64,000 nt of DNA, from assembly GCA_035465295.1 (NCBI GenBank), contig DATHRM010000192.1, positions 164 through 64,163 on the forward strand. The letters are read 5' to 3'. Shown in pieces: positions 6,075 through 47,397 of the stretch. Within the stretch, counting starts at the first letter, position 1. Every line of letters starts with the position of its first letter. The notes beneath the pieces were generated by a model. It saw only the letters and a list, made by a program, of their open reading frames with translations, was not told the origin of the DNA and made no database searches. The stretch comes from Woeseiaceae bacterium (GTDB taxonomy: Bacteria > Pseudomonadota > Gammaproteobacteria > Steroidobacterales > Woeseiaceae). A program made the translations under genes and the position numbers.

Positions 6075-8330
6075 TCAGGCGGTCGAGGTTTTCACGCGCA
6101 CGGAGAGATCTGCCAGCACGTCCTCGAGCGGAATCGGCTTGCCGATTGCGTGCCCCTGCGCGTAGTGCACGCCGAGATCGGCAACCAGCTTGCGCGTCTT
6201 TTCGTTCTCGACGTATTCCGCGACCGTTTCGAGCTCCATGACCTTCGCGACCTGCGTAATAGCCGCGACCATCGATTCCGAGATGCGGTTGACCGAGATG
6301 TCGCGAATGAATCCGCCGTCGATCTTGAGGATGTCTACGGCAAAGTTCTTGAGGTAAGCAAACGAGCTGAGGCCGGCGCCGAAGTCGTCGAGCGCAATGC
6401 TGCAGCCGCGGTCGCGCAACGCGGTGATGAATTCCTGCGCTTTCGCCAGGTTGGAGACGGCCGCAGACTCCGTTACCTCGAACCCGAGTGATCTGGCGGG
6501 CAACCCGGCCTCTTCGATTTCCTGCTCGATGAACTCCAGGATATCGTCGTCCGAGAGCGACTGTCCCGAGAGGTTCACGGAAAAGACGGCCTCCGCGTCG
6601 CGAACGACCTCCGGGTGCTCCGCGAGACTCGCGATCGTCTTCGAGACGACCCAGCGATCGACCTGCGGCATCAGCTGGTAACGCTCCGCCGCGGAAAAGA
6701 ACGCCGATGAGGGCACGGCGCTGCCCGCATCGTCTTTCATGCGCAGCAATATTTCGTAACGCGGCACGTCGGGCAGGCCCGTCAGGCTCGAAATCGGTTG
6801 TGCCATCAGTGCGAACCCGTCGGAATCCAGCGTCTGCTGGATCTGCGCCACGAGCTGCATGTCATCGTGACGGCGGATGATGCTGTGATTCTGTTCGTCG
6901 TACACCTCGATTCGGTCGCGGCCGTGATCCTTTGCCGCTTCGCAGGCCATGCGCGCCGCGGTGAGCGACGCTCCCTCGTCGCCGGAGCGCCGATTGAACT
7001 CGGCAACGCCGATGCTGATGGTAATCTGCAGCGACTTGTCGCCTTCGAGGTAGCGCAGTGACTGTCCTTTCTCCCGGACCTGTTGAGCGAGTTCCAGCCC
7101 CGCTTCTGCGTCGGCGTGCGTCAGCAGGATGCAGAAGTCGTCACCGGTCAGGCGCGACAACACGGCGCTGCGCGGCAGGTCGTTGTCGAGCATCCGGGCG
7201 AAGCGCATGATGACTTCGTCACCGGCCCTGCGCCCGAAGGTATCGTTGACGAGCTGCAGGTTATCGAGGTCGAAATAGATGATCTGGTGCGCGTCATTAC
7301 CGGATTCGAGGCTTTTCCAAGCTTCGTGCATTTGCGCCTCGAAGCCCGAGCGATTCATCAGCCCGGTCATGGCGTCGAACGACTTCTCGATCACGTACTC
7401 GACTTTGCGCACGATGTGCGACATGAAGCGCCGGTGCGCGGTGGTGAACGGCTCGCCGTTGACGCGGCTCAGCAACGCGAGCATGCCCTCGACGTTGCCC
7501 TGCTGGTCCATGACCGGGCAGAGCAGGGTCTGGTAGCCCTTGTCGGCAATACTCTCTCCGCCCTGCACCTCCGGAATCTCGAACACGACGGGCGCGCGCT
7601 TGCTGTCGAGCTTGGGCAACATGTGGTCGATCAGGTAGCGATCCATGGCCCGGCGATTGACCTCTTTCCAGCTCGAATGCGTAGCGCTGATACGAATGCG
7701 CTTCGCAGGCATCAACAGCACGCTGTAGGCGATGCCGAGGAACCGGCCGCTCTGGCCGACAAGCTGTGCCAGGCTGGCGTGGCTGCGCGACTGGCCGTGG
7801 ATCTTCTCGTCGACCTCGTAGACGAGCTTGAGTTCTTTTTCCACGTCCCTGGCCTGCGTACGCGCATCCTGCAACTCGTGGTCGACACTGAGGCCCTCTG
7901 CGATCAGTGCCACGGCCGGTGCGAGGATGTCGTTGAGCAGGCTAGGATTGAACCAGGATGACTTGCCGGCATTCCGTGAGAACACCACGACCAGGAACCC
8001 GAGTGCCTCGCCTGCGTCGACGAGTACGGGGAGCACCAGCAGCGTGCGGCCGGACTTCAGCGTGCGGCGCACGAACTCGTGTTCGGGATGATCGGCGAGC
8101 AGCAGGTCGCCATGCAGTTCGGCGAGGAATTCGTTGACCTCGTAGTCGTCGGCGCCGTCGCTGCTCCAGATACAGCTTCGGTCGAGGCCGTAGAAGCAGA
8201 AGCACTGCGCGCGCGGTACCAGCGACTGCAGCAGGTCGGCTGCTTTGCCGATAGTATCTCTTGCTGTAAGGCTGTGGATGTCGGCTGGCACGGCAGCTTC
8301 CGTGGCGAACAAGGCTTTACACAATGCCAT
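6075..8330 (-). CDS. GAF-GGDEF-EAL signalling protein, probably a c-di-GMP phosphodiesterase
   Basis: GGDEF position reads RLTGDDF (degenerate). The EAL domain looks intact (YEILLRM, FEVTES, ALDDFGAGLSSFAYL, KIDGGF). N-terminal GAF-like regions are present. Confidence 0.88.
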   Translation of the reverse strand: MALCKALFATEAAVPADIHSLTARDTIGKAADLLQSLVPRAQCFCFYGLDRSCIWSSDGADDYEVNEFLAELHGDLLLADHPEHEFVRRTLKSGRTLLVLPVLVDAGEALGFLVVVFSRNAGKSSWFNPSLLNDILAPAVALIAEGLSVDHELQDARTQARDVEKELKLVYEVDEKIHGQSRSHASLAQLVGQSGRFLGIAYSVLLMPAKRIRISATHSSWKEVNRRAMDRYLIDHMLPKLDSKRAPVVFEIPEVQGGESIADKGYQTLLCPVMDQQGNVEGMLALLSRVNGEPFTTAHRRFMSHIVRKVEYVIEKSFDAMTGLMNRSGFEAQMHEAWKSLESGNDAHQIIYFDLDNLQLVNDTFGRRAGDEVIMRFARMLDNDLPRSAVLSRLTGDDFCILLTHADAEAGLELAQQVREKGQSLRYLEGDKSLQITISIGVAEFNRRSGDEGASLTAARMACEAAKDHGRDRIEVYDEQNHSIIRRHDDMQLVAQIQQTLDSDGFALMAQPISSLTGLPDVPRYEILLRMKDDAGSAVPSSAFFSAAERYQLMPQVDRWVVSKTIASLAEHPEVVRDAEAVFSVNLSGQSLSDDDILEFIEQEIEEAGLPARSLGFEVTESAAVSNLAKAQEFITALRDRGCSIALDDFGAGLSSFAYLKNFAVDILKIDGGFIRDISVNRISESMVAAITQVAKVMELETVAEYVENEKTRKLVADLGVHYAQGHAIGKPIPLEDVLADLSVRVKTSTA

Positions 8331-39870: not shown

Positions 39871-40536
39871 TCATTCGTGGATGGAATCCAGGCCTTCGCG
39901 CAGGCGGACTGCCCAGCGGCGCGCCCAGCGGCGCACCTCGGCCCAGGTCGTCGCCGTGTTGGCGCGGATCATCTGGTTGCCGACATTCTCGGCTGCGCGG
40001 CGTTCGACCGCGCGGTAGACGACCTCGTTGCTCAACGAGTCGCGAAGCTCGATGACGAGTGTCGCTTCGCCCACGGACCGCAACCAGACTTCGGACCTGC
40101 CCACATCTTCCGGCGGCACCTGCGAGACGATATCGTGCAGGCCGCCGACGATAATCAGCGCATCCGGACCGGGTTCGTCGGTGACCGTAAAGTGCTCGCT
40201 TTTTTGCAGCTCTTCCGTGAACACCTCGGTCACGGTATCGACCAGGCGCTGCTTGTTCGTGTCGCTGATCCAGAATTCTCTTTCGTTGCTCCGCCTGGCC
40301 GCCGAGGCCGACATTTTCTGGACGCTTCGAAACTCGAATTCGGCGCCACCGGGGATGATCTTGTCGTACTGCTTGAGATCGACGTCCGGATCGACCCACG
40401 CCGCTGCGAAGCGTGCATGATCGATTCGGACGAGGCCGTCGAACGTCGTCTCGGTGTTGGGTCCCGACTGGATGGACGGCTCTGTGGCGCAACCGGCGAC
40501 GACAAGTACTGCCGCTAATGCAACTACCCTCTTCAT
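39871..40536 (-). CDS. DUF3313-like lipoprotein
   Basis: MKRVVALAAVLVVAGC lipobox. GAGGG lies 8 nt upstream of the ATG at 40536. Confidence 0.7.
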   Translation of the reverse strand: MKRVVALAAVLVVAGCATEPSIQSGPNTETTFDGLVRIDHARFAAAWVDPDVDLKQYDKIIPGGAEFEFRSVQKMSASAARRSNEREFWISDTNKQRLVDTVTEVFTEELQKSEHFTVTDEPGPDALIIVGGLHDIVSQVPPEDVGRSEVWLRSVGEATLVIELRDSLSNEVVYRAVERRAAENVGNQMIRANTATTWAEVRRWARRWAVRLREGLDSIHE

Positions 40537-40780
40537 GGAAATACCCTCGTTCATTATCTGCCCGATGCCACGGACTCGATGTTCTTTATTCGACGGGATG
40601 CCATCGAATGATGGTAGCCCCACCAGGGCTTGTCAAACGTCCCGGGCACATAGCATCCGGCTGCCCGTAGCGGGGTCACGGTAGCACGGTCGCGGTTGTC
40701 AATTTGACAATAAGTTAGGGGGTGCACCGCACTCGTTGACAGCTTTCCGGATCGCGTGCGACGATGCATATTCGTTTGAC

Positions 40781-40854
40781 AAAGGCACACCTGGTGAAAG
40801 CCAGGGCCGCAAAGCTTCCGGTCTACGGGTAAACCCCAGGACAGCGGGGCCGCC
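40781..40854 (+). promoter_or_regulatory. Candidate c-di-GMP-I (GEMM-I-like) riboswitch aptamer
   Basis: AAAGGCACA-CCTGGT-GAAA-GCCAGG-GCCGCAAAGCTTCCGGTCT-ACGGG-TAAA-CCCC-AGGACAGCGGGGCCGCC. It forms two adjacent hairpins, the first with a GAAA tetraloop. The junction strings resemble my recollection of the Vc2 aptamer (GGGCAAACC...GAAA...GACGCAAAGCCUCCGG...GGUAGCGGGGUUACC). No covariance-model search was run. Confidence 0.55.
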
Positions 40855-40956
40855 AATACGAGATCCGTTTCGCTTTCGCGATTCTCGCCGCCTGGTGATC
40901 CCACGATCCGCGCTGCCGTGTCTTTGGCATTCGACACTGTTTTGCCGGAGACGACT

Positions 40957-42315
40957 ATGACTGCAGTGAGACTTCGCAACACGGGACGCTTCTTGCGTCC
41001 CGTCAATGGCGGCAGCACCGAATACACGATCAACAGCCTGCGGGAACTGATGCGGCTGCTCGATCCCGCCGCGCGAACGGCCACGCCGATCCGGCCGGCG
41101 GGCGCGGGCAGCGCCTGCACTGGCTGCAACACGACGCCTGCAGGCACGATCATCAGCGTCGGCGCGCTCGACAACATCCTCAATATCGATACGTTCAACA
41201 ACACGGTCACCGCCCAGGCCGGCGTCCGCGTCTATCGACTCGTCGAGGCGCTCGCCGAGCACGGGCTCGAACTCGTCGGAGCGCAGGAACTCGCCGGCCG
41301 TACACTGGGAGGCGCTATCGCCGCGCCGAGCATGGGCCCCGGCATCGGCAAACGCTCTGCGTGCCTCGCCAGCCGGGTATTGAGCGCGAAACTCGTTTCG
41401 CCCGCAGGCAAACTGATGAAGGTGAACGCCGGGCAGAAAAACCTGCTGGGCGCGGTTCGCTCGAGCTACGGGATGCTCGGCGTCATCGTCGAGGCGACGC
41501 TCAGGGTGCAGCCGATATCCAATTTCACGGTCAGCCATCGCAAGTTGACGATCGACGACTTCTCCGCCGTGGTCGACACGCTGTCGAATAGCGATGTCGG
41601 CTTCAAGTTCTACCTGCTTCCCTACCGCGATCGTGTCTATCTCGACTTGCGACGTTATTCCGAGTCGGCCGGGCATACTTACAAGACGCCGTGGAAGATC
41701 AAGGACTGGGGCGAAAGCACGGTATTGCCCAACCTGTTCAAATCATTCAACCGCCTGCTGCCATTGCATTCCGTTCGCTACCAGGTCATCGACACGGTGA
41801 GCGAGGCGACGCAGGGAATCGTCAACGGGCGTTTCGTCACGACGGGCAATAACATACTCGCCGGTTCGGCCGGCCGTAACTTCAGCCGTGCGCGGAGGCT
41901 CCTGTACACGACCTGGTGCTTTCCGGCGGCCGATTTTTCGGTGGTTGCGCGTGCGTACCGGCAGTTCTGCAGACAAAGTTACGCAGAATCGCGATATCGC
42001 TGCGACATGCCGGCCGTCGGCTATTACGTCCACCAGGACCGCTCCGCCCTGCTGTCGCCCTCGTTCGACGAACCGATGATTGCGTTGCAGACCTCGTCGA
42101 CCCAGGCCAACGGCTGGGAAGATTTCGTGATCGACCTTGCCGACTTTGCCGAGCACTGGGCCGGGGTACCGCTTTATAGCCAGACGCGCTCGCTGCGCGC
42201 CGACTACGCCCGCCAGGTCTACGGCGCGCGCCTGGAGTTCTTCCGCCGGATGCGCCGCCAGCTGGACCCCGAGGACCGCTTCCTGACCCCGTTCATGGCG
42301 CAGTACTTCCAGTAA
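40957..42315 (+). CDS. FAD-linked oxidase (PCMH-type FAD-binding; gulono-/arabinono-lactone oxidase-like)
   Basis: ...IRPAGAGSACTG...NTVTAQAGVRVYRLVEALAEHGLEL...GRTLGGAIAAPSMG... and C-terminal ...LDPEDRFLTPF. GGAG lies 6 nt upstream of the ATG at 40957. Confidence 0.85.
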   Translation: MTAVRLRNTGRFLRPVNGGSTEYTINSLRELMRLLDPAARTATPIRPAGAGSACTGCNTTPAGTIISVGALDNILNIDTFNNTVTAQAGVRVYRLVEALAEHGLELVGAQELAGRTLGGAIAAPSMGPGIGKRSACLASRVLSAKLVSPAGKLMKVNAGQKNLLGAVRSSYGMLGVIVEATLRVQPISNFTVSHRKLTIDDFSAVVDTLSNSDVGFKFYLLPYRDRVYLDLRRYSESAGHTYKTPWKIKDWGESTVLPNLFKSFNRLLPLHSVRYQVIDTVSEATQGIVNGRFVTTGNNILAGSAGRNFSRARRLLYTTWCFPAADFSVVARAYRQFCRQSYAESRYRCDMPAVGYYVHQDRSALLSPSFDEPMIALQTSSTQANGWEDFVIDLADFAEHWAGVPLYSQTRSLRADYARQVYGARLEFFRRMRRQLDPEDRFLTPFMAQYFQ

Positions 42316-42452
42316 TCCTGCCGCCCGGTCGCGCGACCGCCCGGTGAATCGCGGCCGGGATTGCCGAATTTTCCGCCCGGTAATTTTTTAAATTACTGTT
42401 TTTACTTATTTTTGTTCGCGAGACAATTCGTTACATTTTCAGGCTGGACTTT

Positions 42453-42506
42453 ATATATCGAACTAATATAATACATCGCCCCGATATATGGGCGACACGG
42501 GTCGCC
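42453..42506 (+). promoter_or_regulatory. padR promoter/operator candidate
   Basis: Inverted repeat ATATATCG (42453-60) / CGATATAT (42482-89) brackets a perfect TATAAT (42467-72). A GGCGAC-acgg-GTCGCC hairpin lies at 42491-42506. Confidence 0.4.
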
Positions 42507-42519
42507 GGGTTGTAACGCA

Positions 42520-43068
42520 ATGGATGTGAAAACCGTCTGCCTGGGCATGCTGACCGATGGCGAAGCCTCGGGCTATGACCTGAAAAAGGAATTCCAGTCG
42601 TCGTTCGGCCATTTTTTCGCCGCCGGTTACGGTTCGATCTACCCCGCGCTCAACGCGCTCGCCCGCGACGGGCTGGTCGAGTGCAGGCACATTCCGCAGG
42701 AAGGCAAGCCGGACCGCAAGGTCTACAAGATCACCGAGCTCGGCCGCGAGCATCTGCTTGCGGCGCTCGACAACCCCTGTCCGTCTCACAAGGTTCGTTC
42801 CGAGTTCCTCGCCACGATGTGCTTTGCACACCTCATGTCGCGCGAACAGGTCGAAACCGTTCTCGACAATCGTGTCAAAGAGATGACGGACTACCTGCAG
42901 CTGTTTAAAGAAATCGAAACGTCCTGCATGGATGATTGGCCGCCGGGCGCACGCTTCGTGCTCGGCTTCGGCCAGACGATGATGAAAACCATGCGGCAAT
43001 ACATCGAAGACAACCGGGACGGGCTCTTCGACGATTCGAACAAAGGGCGCGAGACCGCGGTCGGCTGA
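42520..43068 (+). CDS. PadR-family transcriptional regulator (long form with C-terminal domain)
   Basis: ...GEASGYDLKKEF...GSIYPALNALARDGLV...KVYKITELGREHL PadR winged-helix pattern. Confidence 0.9.
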   Translation: MDVKTVCLGMLTDGEASGYDLKKEFQSSFGHFFAAGYGSIYPALNALARDGLVECRHIPQEGKPDRKVYKITELGREHLLAALDNPCPSHKVRSEFLATMCFAHLMSREQVETVLDNRVKEMTDYLQLFKEIETSCMDDWPPGARFVLGFGQTMMKTMRQYIEDNRDGLFDDSNKGRETAVG

Positions 43069-43110
43069 TACTGCCGCGGGCCTCGTGCGGAGACAGAAAA
43101 GGTCAAGAAA

Positions 43111-44241
43111 ATGGATTTGGGCAACGTGAAGAAATTTCGGTCCTGGTTTATTTCGGCCGGCATCGCCGTGCTGGTGACGGCGTGGCTCGTCTCGGGACAA
43201 TTCGTTGAAGAAGCGCCGGAAGAGACGACTGACAGCGTTATAACCGATACGGCTCCGGCACAGCAGTCGAGTGTCCGGGTGCGTACCCAGTCCGCCGAAG
43301 AAATCATGCGTACGGTCGTCGTCAATGGCGAGACCGCGCCTGCCCGTATCGTGGATCTTGCCGCTGAAACCGACGGCCGCGTCGAGTACGTCGGCGCCAG
43401 TCGCGGTTCGAATGTCGATCGCAATGCCGTCATTGTCCGGCTGGACGAGCGCGACCGCAAAGCCAGGCTCGCGCAGACTGAAGCGACCCTGCGACAACGC
43501 GAAGTCGAGTACCAGGGACGCCTGAAGCTCAAAGGCGAAAGCTACGTCTCGGAAGCGCAGCTGCAGGAAGCTATCGCGCAGCTCGAAGCCGCAAAAACAG
43601 AACTCAAGCGGGCGCAGCTCGATCTCGAATACATGTCGATTCGCGCGCCTTTCGACGGAGCGCTGCAGGAACGTCACGTCGAGGTCGGCGACTTCGTCAA
43701 GAGCGGAGACCCGATCGCACGATTCGTGGACAACCGCAGGATCATCGTCACCGCAAACGTTTCCGAGTTCGACGCGGGTTACGTGCAAACCGGGCAGAAG
43801 GCACAGGCGGAGCTTGCCACCGGCGAAACGGTGCATGGCACCATCCGCTACGTCGCCCCGGTCGCGAACGAGGCGACGCGCACGTTTACGGTGGAGCTGG
43901 AGGTCGACAATGGCGCCGGCAGGCTGCGTGCCGGCGGCACCGCCGAACTGCAGATTCCTGCCGAGCGTGTACTCGCGCATCGCATTTCGCCGTCACTGCT
44001 CACGCTCGACGACGCCGGCAACATCGGCGTGAAGATCATTAACGACGATGGAGAGGTCGAATTCGTCGTTGCCGACGTGGCGCTGTCGACGAATGACGGC
44101 GTCTGGGTCGCCGGCCTGCCGGATCTCGCCACGATCATCACGGTAGGCCAGGGCTTCGTCGTGCCCGGGACGATGGTGAATGCCGTTCCGGAGGGCGATA
44201 TCGAGACCGCGGTCGCCATCAAGTCGGACGACGAGGACTAG
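43111..44241 (+). CDS. RND efflux periplasmic adaptor (MFP), TM-anchored
   Basis: N-terminal TM helix, a lipoyl/hairpin/beta-barrel pattern, and ...IRAPFDGALQERHVEVGDFV... Confidence 0.9.
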   Translation: MDLGNVKKFRSWFISAGIAVLVTAWLVSGQFVEEAPEETTDSVITDTAPAQQSSVRVRTQSAEEIMRTVVVNGETAPARIVDLAAETDGRVEYVGASRGSNVDRNAVIVRLDERDRKARLAQTEATLRQREVEYQGRLKLKGESYVSEAQLQEAIAQLEAAKTELKRAQLDLEYMSIRAPFDGALQERHVEVGDFVKSGDPIARFVDNRRIIVTANVSEFDAGYVQTGQKAQAELATGETVHGTIRYVAPVANEATRTFTVELEVDNGAGRLRAGGTAELQIPAERVLAHRISPSLLTLDDAGNIGVKIINDDGEVEFVVADVALSTNDGVWVAGLPDLATIITVGQGFVVPGTMVNAVPEGDIETAVAIKSDDED

Positions 44242-44244
44242 CGA

Positions 44245-47200
44245 ATGCAGATCATCGAGTCGGCAATGTCGCGGTCGCGAACCGTGTTGCTGTCGCTTGC
44301 GGTCGTGCTGTTCGCCGGCGTTACCGCCTACCTGACGATTCCGAAGGAGGCTGAGCCGGACATCGAGATACCGATGATCTACGTCCACATCACGCACGAC
44401 GGCATATCCCCGGAAGACGGAGAGCGCCTCCTGGTCCGTCCCATGGAGCAGGAGCTGCGCACGATCGAGGGCATCAAGGAGATGACGGCGAACGCCTACG
44501 AGGGCGGCGCCAACGTCCTCATCGAGTTCGACGCCGGCATCGACACCGACAAGGCGCTGGCGGACGTGCGCGAAAAGGTCGACATGGCGAAGGCCAAGCT
44601 ACCGAGCGAAACCGACGAGCCGACCGTCAACGAAGTCAAGATGTCGCGTTTCGACCCGATGCTGGTACTGAACCTGGCGGGCAACGTTCCCGAGCGGACA
44701 CTCATAACGATTGCGAAGGACCTCAAGGAGGAAATCGAGGGTCTCGCCGGCGTGCTCGAGGTGAACCTCGTGGGCGTTCGCGAAGAGCTTATGGAGGTCA
44801 TCGTCGATCCATTGGCCATGGAAAGCTACGGCCTGGACCAGGCGCAGATCATCAACTTCGTCTCGCGGAACAACCGGCTCGTCGCGGCCGGCGCACTGCA
44901 GTCGGACGAAGGACGATTTCCGGTCAAGGTGCCCGGCGTGTTCGAAAGTCCGGCGGACGTGCTCAACCTGCCCATCAAGGCCGTCGGCGAACGCGTCGTT
45001 CACTTCCGCGATATCGCCGAAGTGCGCCGGACCTACAAGGACGCCGAAAGCTATGCGCGCCTGAACGGCAAGCCGGCACTGGCGATCGAAGTCGTGCAGC
45101 GCGCGCGCGCCAACGTCATCGAAACGATAGACGAAATCAAGGCGCTGGTTGCCGAAGAACAGGCGTACTGGCCGGCCGAGATCGAGGTCATCGCTTCACG
45201 CGACAAATCGAAAGACGTGAACGACATGCTGACGGAACTGCAGAACAGCGTGCTCGCGGCCGTGCTGCTGGTATTCATCGTCATTATCGGCATCCTCGGC
45301 ATCCGCACCGCGCTGCTCGTCGGTGTCGCGATTCCCGGTTCTTTCCTGATGGGCATACTGCTCATCGGTTCCTTCGGCGTAACCATCAACATGATGGTGC
45401 TGTTCGCATTGATCATGGCCGTCGGCATGCTCGTCGACGGCGCAATCGTCGTAACCGAAATGGCGGACCGGCGCATGGCCGAAGGCGATAGCCGTTTCGA
45501 TGCGTACTCGCGAGCCGCCATCCGCATGTCGTGGCCCATCATTGCCTCGACCTGCACCACGCTTGCGGCTTTCGTGCCGCTGGCGCTCTGGCCCGGCACG
45601 TCCGGCGAATTCATGAAGTACCTGCCGATCACACTGATAGCCGTGCTCTCCGCATCGCTGATCATGGCGTTGATTTTCGTGCCGACCCTCGGTTCGATGT
45701 TCGGCAGGACCGGCGCCACGACGGCGGAGATGAAACGCAATCTCGCCGCGGCAGAGACGGGCGACCTGAACCACGTGACCGGTTTTACGGGAAGCTATGT
45801 CAGGCTGCTCAGGCACTCCCTGAAGAAGCCCTGGCGTAACGTGGCGGCCGTTACGGGCCTGCTGCTCGCCGTTTATGCCGCCTTTTTCGCGTTCGGCCGC
45901 GGCGTCGAGTACTTTCCGGAAGTCGAAATGCCTTTCGGAATGGTCGATATCCGTGCGCGCGGCGATCTGTCGATCGACGAAATGGACGAGCTGGTGCGCC
46001 AGGTCGAGAATCGCGTCCTCGGCATGCCCGAGATCGAGAACCTCTACGTCAAAGTCGGGCCGGGCGGCGATGATGCCGCGTCCGATCATATTGGCTCGCT
46101 CACGCTGAACTACGTCGACTGGGACGAGCGGCGCAAATCTGACGAGATCCTGGCAGAGATCCGCGACAGGACCGCCGACCTCGTGGGCATCACCATCGAA
46201 ACCCGCAAACCCGACCCGGGTCCGCCCATCGGCAAGCCCATCCATATCGAGGTCGCATCACGGTTCCCGGCACTGCTGGACGAGGCGGTCGCCGATATCC
46301 GCGCGATCATGGAAAAACACCCGGCGGTCACCAATATCGAGGACAGCCGTCCCCTGCCCGGCATCGAATGGCAGATCGACGTCGACCGCGCCGAGGCGGC
46401 GCGCTTCGGCGCCGACATCTCGCTCGTAGGCTCGATGGTTCAGCTGGTGACGAATGGCATAAAAATCGGCGAGTACCGCCCCGACGACAGTGACGACGAA
46501 ATCGACATTCGCGTCCGCTATCCCGAGCAGTATCGCAGCCTTTCCCAGATAGACCAGCTGCGCATCCCGACCGACGAGGGGCAGGTGCCGATCAGCACGT
46601 TCGTGGAACGCAAGCCGGCCCAGAAAGTGAGCACCATCACCAGGATCGACATGCAGCGAACGATCAGCATCGATGCCGACGTTCACAACGACTATCTCGT
46701 GTCCGACGTGGTGGCAGAACTGCGCGAGCTGATGCCGACGCTTGCACTCGACCCGCGCATAAGCGCGGCGTTTCGCGGCGGCACCGAGGACCAGGAAGAA
46801 GACATGGCGTTCCTGGAAAGAGCGATGTTGATGGCTCTCGCGATCATGGCGATCATTCTCGTGACCCAGTTCAACAGTATCTACCAGGCGGGACTGATAC
46901 TCACTGCCGTGCTCTTTTCGACGGGGGGCGTACTGCTCGGTCATCTCGTAATGGACAAGCCGTTCGGCGTCATCATGTCCAGCGTCGGCGTCATCACGCT
47001 CGCCGGCATCGTGGTAAACAACAACATTGTGTTCATCGACACCTATAACGTGCTCCGCGGCCGCGGTCTCGATGCCTATGACGCCGTGCTGCGCACGTGC
47101 GCGATTCGCCTCCGGCCGGTGTTGCTGACCACGGTCACGACGATCATAGGATTGATGCCCATGGTGCTCGGCGTAAACATCAACCTGATCGGCCGCGATA

Positions 47201-47397
47201 TCTCGGTGGGCGCGCCGAGTTCGCAGTGGTGGACCCAGCTCGCGTCGTCGGTCGCTGGCGGCCTGGCATTCGCGACGATTCTCACGCTGGTCCTGACGCC
47301 CAGCCTGCTCATGATCCAGGCAAACATCTCGAAGCGCCTCGCAGCACGGCGCGAGCGCCGCGGCGAACGTTCGTCCGCGACCGCGGCGACCCCGTAG
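44245..47397 (+). CDS. RND efflux permease (AcrB/HAE-type), pump 1
   Basis: 1050 aa with 12-TM architecture and two large periplasmic loops. Confidence 0.95.
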   Translation: MQIIESAMSRSRTVLLSLAVVLFAGVTAYLTIPKEAEPDIEIPMIYVHITHDGISPEDGERLLVRPMEQELRTIEGIKEMTANAYEGGANVLIEFDAGIDTDKALADVREKVDMAKAKLPSETDEPTVNEVKMSRFDPMLVLNLAGNVPERTLITIAKDLKEEIEGLAGVLEVNLVGVREELMEVIVDPLAMESYGLDQAQIINFVSRNNRLVAAGALQSDEGRFPVKVPGVFESPADVLNLPIKAVGERVVHFRDIAEVRRTYKDAESYARLNGKPALAIEVVQRARANVIETIDEIKALVAEEQAYWPAEIEVIASRDKSKDVNDMLTELQNSVLAAVLLVFIVIIGILGIRTALLVGVAIPGSFLMGILLIGSFGVTINMMVLFALIMAVGMLVDGAIVVTEMADRRMAEGDSRFDAYSRAAIRMSWPIIASTCTTLAAFVPLALWPGTSGEFMKYLPITLIAVLSASLIMALIFVPTLGSMFGRTGATTAEMKRNLAAAETGDLNHVTGFTGSYVRLLRHSLKKPWRNVAAVTGLLLAVYAAFFAFGRGVEYFPEVEMPFGMVDIRARGDLSIDEMDELVRQVENRVLGMPEIENLYVKVGPGGDDAASDHIGSLTLNYVDWDERRKSDEILAEIRDRTADLVGITIETRKPDPGPPIGKPIHIEVASRFPALLDEAVADIRAIMEKHPAVTNIEDSRPLPGIEWQIDVDRAEAARFGADISLVGSMVQLVTNGIKIGEYRPDDSDDEIDIRVRYPEQYRSLSQIDQLRIPTDEGQVPISTFVERKPAQKVSTITRIDMQRTISIDADVHNDYLVSDVVAELRELMPTLALDPRISAAFRGGTEDQEEDMAFLERAMLMALAIMAIILVTQFNSIYQAGLILTAVLFSTGGVLLGHLVMDKPFGVIMSSVGVITLAGIVVNNNIVFIDTYNVLRGRGLDAYDAVLRTCAIRLRPVLLTTVTTIIGLMPMVLGVNINLIGRDISVGAPSSQWWTQLASSVAGGLAFATILTLVLTPSLLMIQANISKRLAARRERRGERSSATAATP

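Follow-up and report, generated by a model that had tools for sequence, protein, structure and literature searches.

The window analysed here, a stretch of 64,000 nucleotides (nt) from contig DATHRM010000192.1 of the Woeseiaceae bacterium assembly GCA_035465295.1, contains on its plus strand, at positions 40771-40863, a complete aptamer of the cyclic di-guanosine monophosphate class I (c-di-GMP-I) riboswitch type with a P1-P2-P3 three-way junction. It lies in the 5' leader of a plus-strand gene at 40957-42315 whose product is a 452-amino-acid (aa) flavin adenine dinucleotide (FAD)-dependent oxidoreductase. We put the chance at roughly seven in ten that this canonical c-di-GMP-I aptamer, with a conserved putative promoter about 35 nt upstream of it, starts the oxidoreductase mRNA and acts there as a translational OFF switch. 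The aptamer part of this reading is well supported, while the expression platform is the part that we infer. The pairing of aptamer and gene is retained across the family Woeseiaceae, whose members rank among the commonest bacteria in marine sediments.

The aptamer and its conservation

A scan of the whole 64-kb window with Rfam cmscan returned a single match at gathering level, located at 40775-40858 on the plus strand and spanning the full length of its model (64.3 bits, E 6.8e-13). The top model was the variant family c-di-GMP-I-GGC (RF03167, gathering score 59 bits) and not c-di-GMP-I itself (RF01051, gathering score 35 bits). Both belong to clan CL00126, and under clan competition only the top-scoring member of each clan is displayed; a second clan member that also reached its own gathering score was masked in this way. 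A covariance model (R1) trained on the orthologous leaders described below scored 102.4 bits at the aptamer, its sole site in the window, and neither this lineage-specific model nor the Rfam scan found a second aptamer copy in the 64 kb. The c-di-GMP-II family (RF01786) had no match in 40600-41000 in a permissive scan, even at E<=10. A minus-strand match to NLPC-P60 in that same permissive scan (15 bits, E 4.9) is at chance level and was set aside.

Reading through the aptamer (40771-40863, UUCGUUUGACAAAGGCACACCUGGUGAAAGCCAGGGCCGCAAAGCUUCCGGUCUACGGGUAAACCCCAGGACAGCGGGGCCGCCAAUACGAGA), the P1 5' strand UCGUUUG (40772-40778) pairs with the P1 3' strand CAAUACGA (40854-40861), with U40857 bulged. 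J1/2, ACAAAG (40779-40784), falls on the Rfam model's junction in the alignment, which makes G40784 the equivalent of Vc2 G20, a ligand contact. The P2 hairpin follows (40785-40810, with a GAAA tetraloop at 40796-40799), and then J2/3, AA (40811-40812), where A40811 is the counterpart of Vc2 A47, which intercalates between the two guanines. The P3 hairpin (40813-40851) holds a tetraloop-receptor-like internal loop, UCUACG (40822-40827) opposite CAGGA (40837-40841), and J3/1, GC (40852-40853), supplies C40853, equivalent to Vc2 C92, the Watson-Crick partner of one guanine. G20, A47, A48 and C92 are the key ligand-recognition bases of c-di-GMP-I (PMC3764141). G40784, the CGCAAA string holding A47-A49 (A40811-A40813) and C40853 are each invariant in 75 sequences, that is, in the window and throughout the 74 distinct orthologous leaders; position 91 is G in the window (G40852) and A or G in the orthologs. 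The P3 loop of most orthologs reads UCUAAG...UAnGA, as in the RF01051 consensus CUAAg...uAuGa, and that of the window UCUACG...CAGGA. We take the UCUAAG...UAnGA loop to be the 11-nt GAAA-receptor motif; the GAAA on P2 and the receptor on P3, the hallmark of type-1 GEMM aptamers, are thus both present at the level of the sequence.

The downstream protein retrieved 80 loci, all of them in Woeseiaceae or in unclassified gammaproteobacterial metagenome-assembled genomes, with 48-93% protein identity. When 600 nt upstream of each gene were searched with nhmmer, the aptamer was found before the same gene in 76 of the 78 loci for which such sequence was available. The GEMM-I structure, comprising 24 pairs, was then assessed on a MAFFT alignment of 75 leaders. 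Over this alignment 93.9% of the cells are paired and 11 pairs show changes on both sides; none of 500 shuffles attained the observed pairing values, and controls in which the partner strand was slid pair only 32-50% of cells. P1 is paired in 76.5% of cells in a fixed register, its register being shifted by one in some clades, and five of its seven pairs carry both-side changes. In P2 the outer pairs G40785-C40810 and C40786-G40809 are invariant among the orthologs, and all six inner pairs (6/6) have changed on both sides. De novo prediction with RNAalifold recovered both P2 and P3. Covariation backs all three helices and is strong in P2.

These results confirm 40771-40863, by sequence and structure, as a genuine c-di-GMP-I (GEMM-I) riboswitch aptamer of the ordinary type, and binding of c-di-GMP is predicted from its canonical contact bases. 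An earlier reading of the window, made from the letters and their open reading frames (ORFs) and here called the sequence-only reading, had proposed such an aptamer upstream of an FAD-linked gene of the lactone-oxidase type and had named as checks an Rfam score, an RF01786 control and covariation in orthologous leaders. The proposal is borne out: the score exceeds the gathering threshold, though with RF03167 as the best model, the control is empty, and the leaders contain compensatory changes around canonical contact bases. The two adjacent hairpins of that reading are both in the sequence as described, including a first stem of 6 bp (CCUGGU/GCCAGG) closed by a GNRA tetraloop, the GAAA at 40796-40799. 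Its range of 40781-40854 covers the aptamer core and leaves out P1.

A candidate promoter at the aptamer's 5' edge

Upstream of the aptamer on the plus strand, a candidate -35 hexamer TTGACA (40736-40741) is invariant in 10 close orthologous leaders, and a candidate extended -10 element TGcGACGAT (40757-40765) is invariant at 9/9 bases in 10 orthologous leaders, between variable flanks. The two are separated by 15 nt, with TTGACA lying 18 nt upstream of the -10-like hexamer, and transcription from this putative promoter is predicted to start near position 40772, where P1 begins. A scan for consensus promoters did not list the TTGACA/TGcGACGAT pair, because the -10 hexamer is weak.

TTGACA occurs three times within 80 nt: in the 40702-40709 region, at 40736-40741 (the likely -35) and at 40776-40781, in P1 and J1/2 of the aptamer. 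The upstream ATTTGACA at 40702-40709 of the window is almost invariant in close orthologs.

A proposed expression platform with two partners

The spacer between the aptamer and the start codon contains a conserved plus-strand candidate switching element, GUGUCUUUGGC (40918-40928). It is best read as an anti-Shine-Dalgarno sequence, and it also complements the aptamer 5' core GACAAAGGCAC (40778-40788), a stretch that runs from the last P1 base through J1/2, with its G20, into P2. Its downstream partner is the Shine-Dalgarno (SD) region UGCCGGAGAC (40943-40952, plus strand), which includes GGAG at 40947-40950, forms the 3' arm of a sequestering hairpin and precedes the AUG at 40957. GCCGGAGA at the SD region is invariant in close orthologs, and 40943-40952 is paired with 40920-40929 in both the minimum free energy (MFE) and the centroid fold.

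The switching element is kept in 35 leaders, down to a protein identity of about 54%, in spacers that are otherwise unalignable. The distance from GUGUCUUUGGC to GGAG is constant at 16-23 nt, and the length of the upstream spacer varies between 50 and 131 scanned windows. In 33 of the 35 leaders, no other stretch of the spacer complements the aptamer 5' core as well as GUGUCUUUGGC. Across leaders, the helix between element and SD is paired in 91.9% of cells and that between element and aptamer core in 99.4%, with duplex energies of -16.6 kcal/mol and -13.6 kcal/mol, respectively. The three U's of the element pair with the AAA of the aptamer core, and two of them form G-U wobbles with the GG of the SD. 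The C in the GAC of J1/2, which pairs with G9 of the element, is present in every leader that has the element (35/35), and the element occurs in none of the leaders in which this base is A or U (0/33).

From these complementarities, the window's leader most likely works as a kinetic translational OFF switch. At high c-di-GMP, P1, J1/2 and P2 would be locked in the aptamer, so that GUGUCUUUGGC (40918-40928) would be free to pair with UGCCGGAGAC (40943-40952) and the SD would be hidden. At low c-di-GMP, GACAAAGGCAC (40778-40788) would pair with GUGUCUUUGGC while the latter is leaving the polymerase, some 20 nt ahead of the SD. The SD would then stay open and the oxidoreductase would be made, that is, in the low-c-di-GMP state.

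The direction of the switch is also suggested by sister clades that have other platforms. In ten leaders (L024, L041, L047, L050, L051, L055, L056, L058, L059 and L076) the AUG falls inside the P1 3' strand (ACCAAUAUGAAG), and in this clade a G-to-A substitution disrupting pair 48-95 has produced a GGAG in the P3 3' strand. L011-L022 have their GGAG in the P1 3' strand (ACCGGAGACGnnAUG), 7 nt before the AUG. With SD or AUG inside P1 or P3, a ligand-stabilised aptamer must therefore occlude the ribosome site, which makes these leaders OFF switches by their architecture. Between SD and AUG, L011-L022 (CCGGAGACGAgaAUGAgUGCAG) and the window (CCGGAGACGAcuAUGAcUGCAG) have homologous segments, and short and long forms of the leader would therefore be related by loss or gain of a spacer of about 90 nt. 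A fourth group, the most distant orthologs (L062-L080), has leaders of 120-200 nt without GUGUCUUUGGC.

Several observations weigh against this reading. Two loci, L029 (2878-3000) and L052 (2850-3000), have the oxidoreductase gene without the aptamer, and L004 (1216-1275) keeps the aptamer, but a 38-nt deletion has removed its anti-SD element; all three are possible natural controls. The association of the GAC with the element is confounded by phylogeny. Both platform helices are near-invariant, with single wobble-compatible changes and no double compensatory changes, so they are supported by conservation and not by covariation. The unconstrained MFE fold (-70.2 kcal/mol) contains the SD hairpin, and the proposed ON fold (-68.9 kcal/mol) is 1.3 kcal/mol worse; the fold with the aptamer enforced comes to -63.0 kcal/mol, a value that excludes the energy of ligand and tertiary contacts. 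Since these energies are close, the switch would have to be kinetic. The leader as a whole folds no better than shuffled sequence (z = -0.68). Finally, RF03167 ranks top for the window, the window's own RF01051 score being masked by clan competition.

Of the other explanations, the one that keeps most weight, although we consider it unlikely, is that the sign or level of control differs: the SD hairpin would be constitutive and c-di-GMP would relieve the repression (translational ON), or would alter the fate of the transcript through Rho termination or mRNA stability. This would fit an SD hairpin that is present in the MFE fold regardless of the aptamer, and c-di-GMP-I switches of both signs are known, with Vc1 being ON (PMC4744006) and Vc2 being OFF and also affecting RNA stability (bioRxiv 10.1101/617340). 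However, in the two sister clades with SD or AUG in P1 or P3 only OFF is possible, and the anti-SD element of the window clade complements the 5' core of the aptamer, not its 3' side, because of which aptamer folding would free the anti-SD and not capture it. As such, translational OFF control is the reading that we prefer for the window.

Alternative ligands and termination

The Rfam ranking raises the question of whether the aptamer belongs to the c-di-GMP-I-GGC variant (RF03167), with an altered pocket possibly for another ligand. That model ranks best for the window, where the covariance score lies above the family threshold (64.3 vs 59), and likewise for 9 of the 20 orthologous leaders given to Rfam. 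The consensus of its junction is CGCGAAgC, against CGCAAAgC in RF01051 (in longer form, ...GGGACGCGAAgCc...GcUGCcg against ...GACGCAAAgCc...GcUgCCgaa), so that the sole difference at a ligand contact is position 47. The name 'GGC' would accordingly stand for G20/G47/C92, a deduction from the two consensus lines and the known contacts (PMC3764141). The sequence of the window here is CGCAAAGC; its position 47 is A (A40811), as it is in all 74 aligned orthologous leaders (75/75), and G47 of the variant is therefore absent. The 20 leaders of the same gene divide into 11 assigned to RF01051 (69-81 bits) and 9 assigned to RF03167 (62-72 bits), a split that tracks neither position 47, which is always A, nor position 91, and that is expected from competition between sister models. 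Because the 11/9 split follows neither position, we read the RF03167 label as the outcome of competition between two sister models and not as evidence for an altered pocket, and regard the variant explanation as very improbable. Position 91 had been considered as the variant-defining base and was rejected: the RF01051 consensus itself has g there, as does that of RF03167, so G40852 is not diagnostic of the family, and A or G at this position does not track the winning model. The GEMM-I identity given in the sequence-only reading thus stands in its canonical contacts and clan match, with the qualification that the best-scoring model is the GGC variant, whose G47 the window lacks.

For automated annotation, the consequence is that about half of these canonical aptamers carry a 'GGC variant' label that could imply a falsely altered ligand, and since clan competition mislabels 9 of 20 canonical A47 leaders, the effect is a pitfall for counts of 'variant' riboswitches.

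A platform based on termination fares worse still and is barely plausible. The sequence-only reading had suggested that the aptamer drives a weak intrinsic terminator, GTGTC-N10-GACAC-TGTTTT at 40918-40943, and a terminator-like hairpin followed by a short T run does exist in the window. However, a terminator scan of 40500-41100 found no site on either strand, the stem has only 5 bp, and neither its 3' arm nor the T tract is conserved. The 3' arms of nine close orthologs have the sequence GACCC, GAACT, GACTT, GAGCT, GAATC or GAATT, none of which can pair, and the T run is interrupted; the 5' arm alone is invariant, as part of GUGUCUUUGGC. In sister clades there is no space for a terminator, because the AUG falls inside P1.

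Least credible of all is a GEMM-Ib riboswitch for cyclic AMP-GMP (c-AMP-GMP, 3'3'-cGAMP): such riboswitches share the fold and Rfam family of c-di-GMP-I, of which rare variants sense c-AMP-GMP (PMC7266159), and a G20A change lets a c-di-GMP-I aptamer bind cGAMP (PMC7288161, PMC6140456), but the specificity position 20 is G here (G40784), invariant in 75 sequences, where GEMM-Ib has A20.

The oxidoreductase and its neighbourhood

The 452-aa protein encoded downstream of the aptamer has the vanillyl-alcohol oxidase (VAO) fold, with FAD_binding_4 and an ALO cap domain that are both above the Pfam cut-offs; calling the gene lactone-oxidase-type with unspecified substrate, as the sequence-only reading did, was therefore right. 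The protein falls below every NCBIfam cut-off, the best score being that for TIGR01679 (bact_FAD_ox, 110.7 vs 292), followed by TIGR01678 (79.9 vs 397) and DprE1 (55 vs 500). Its best match among PDB sequences is L-galactono-1,4-lactone dehydrogenase (GLDH; E 5e-20), over the FAD domain only. The AlphaFold model has a mean predicted local distance difference test (pLDDT) score of 65.5, with low confidence in residues 236-315, and its Foldseek neighbours GLDH, alditol oxidase and DprE1 are near-equal, at a template-modelling (TM) score of about 0.6 and 15-20% identity. Relatives of the protein are named only generically in public sources. A substrate assignment was attempted and abandoned, with NCBIfam, the PDB search, AlphaFold and Foldseek all stopping at the superfamily level. 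The protein is by its sequence features a divergent member of the VAO superfamily, and its assignment stops at that level. Two motifs bear on its chemistry. GAGSA presumably occupies the place of the His of covalent-flavin oxidases, and the enzyme may therefore be a dehydrogenase rather than an oxidase; HWAG, we assume, occupies the place of HWAK in aldonolactone oxidoreductases.

Family-wide, the gene order is a PLD-like gene (minus strand), a DUF3313 lipoprotein gene (minus), the riboswitch and oxidoreductase (plus), and then genes for a PadR regulator, a membrane-fusion protein and a resistance-nodulation-division (RND) pump (all plus). In the window the latter three, a PadR-family regulator, an HlyD-type membrane-fusion protein and an AcrB-type RND pump, lie at 42520-47397 on the plus strand, and they follow the oxidoreductase in most Woeseiaceae loci. 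A promoter-like site, TGGACT-16-TATAAT, is found at 42445-42472, before PadR, and the oxidoreductase is therefore probably monocistronic. A minus-strand ORF of 505 aa (42463-43980), which overlaps the PadR and membrane-fusion protein genes, has no Pfam match and is probably spurious, in a genome that is GC-rich.

Further away, the minus-strand gene at 6075-8330 encodes a GGDEF-EAL protein of 751 aa, recognised by Pfam and by motif, in which the GGDEF motif has degenerated to TGDDF. The sequence-only reading had described it as GAF-GGDEF*-EAL and tied it to the leader. Its degenerate GGDEF and EAL parts were correctly called, but the first ~317 residues have no Pfam domain at E<=0.001, and no specific link between this protein and the leader was found. 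What it shows is only that c-di-GMP turnover proteins exist in the organism.

Breadth and significance

A metagenome scan with the pattern GGCACA...CGCAAARC..CCGRTC matched at least 120 loci. Among the matches listed, 36 stand before the oxidoreductase gene and 84 before others, so the GGCACACC flavour of the aptamer is not specific to the oxidoreductase gene or to the family. In these metagenomes the same aptamer flavour stands repeatedly before a protein of about 470-487 aa with the N-terminus M..L.ITPWP..SA.LW.VL...LY.AR.TAH.AI (loci L081, L099, L101, L104, L111, L112, L129, L145, L146, L158, L168, L171, L175, L177, L182, L186, L191, L197 and L199), whose AUG is often in the P1 3' strand (GUUGCCAGCAUGGA). 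It is probably a membrane protein, and the group could be a widespread c-di-GMP-controlled gene family.

Among the papers that we searched, none links Woeseia to riboswitches, or a c-di-GMP riboswitch to gulonolactone oxidase or this enzyme type. The association with the oxidoreductase is unusual and strongly conserved, though the targets of c-di-GMP-I riboswitches are already known as disparate, the class controlling a large and varied gene set (PMC7266159). A broader claim, to which we would give somewhat less than an even chance, is that Woeseiaceae have a c-di-GMP-I riboswitch fixed (76/78) before one ALO/alditol-oxidase/DprE1-like flavoenzyme, that it represses this enzyme at high c-di-GMP, and that the enzyme is an unrecognised c-di-GMP output reached through at least three interconvertible platforms. 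If so, the flavoenzyme would be a new output of c-di-GMP signalling, for example by oxidising sugars or polyols in connection with the envelope or with the use of carbon by free-living cells, and the enzyme family would be flagged as part of a lifestyle switch. A lineage with very few cultured members would thereby gain a concrete c-di-GMP output that can be tested. The three interconvertible platforms would be the AUG in P1, the SD in P1 and the remote bifunctional anti-SD/anti-aptamer element; the leaders would then form a natural series in which one aptamer is coupled to translation in three ways, useful for understanding and engineering expression platforms.

Comparison with known systems

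The enzyme resembles aldonolactone oxidoreductases, alditol oxidase and DprE1 in its FAD_binding_4 and ALO architecture, with structural similarity at TM ~0.6, and differs from them in identity, at 15-20%, and in scoring below all of the NCBIfam cut-offs.

Among riboswitches, the c-AMP-GMP (GEMM-Ib) switches of Geobacter have the same fold, with A at position 20 where the window has G. The c-di-GMP-I-GGC family (RF03167) is similar in the score above its threshold, the short P3 and the overall sequence flavour, but the aptamer is without G47, having A in the window and in all orthologs.

The closest comparison is with c-di-GMP-I (RF01051) and its Vibrio cholerae type examples Vc2 and Vc1, which share the P1/P2/P3 junction, the GAAA on P2, the receptor-like P3 loop and the position in a 5' leader, as well as the junction strings AAAGGCA.ACC, GCAAAGC and AGCGGGG..CC and the contacts G20/A47/C92. 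The OFF logic proposed for the window would likewise be that of Vc2 (bioRxiv 10.1101/617340). Unlike the type examples, the aptamer has C in place of A24 (GGCACACC), which is common in environmental examples, and the receptor of the window has an A-C step instead of A-A. The controlled gene encodes a flavoenzyme and is not an adhesin, pilus, motility or chitin gene, and the window's proposed platform would differ from those of the type examples in being an anti-SD that doubles as an anti-aptamer element.

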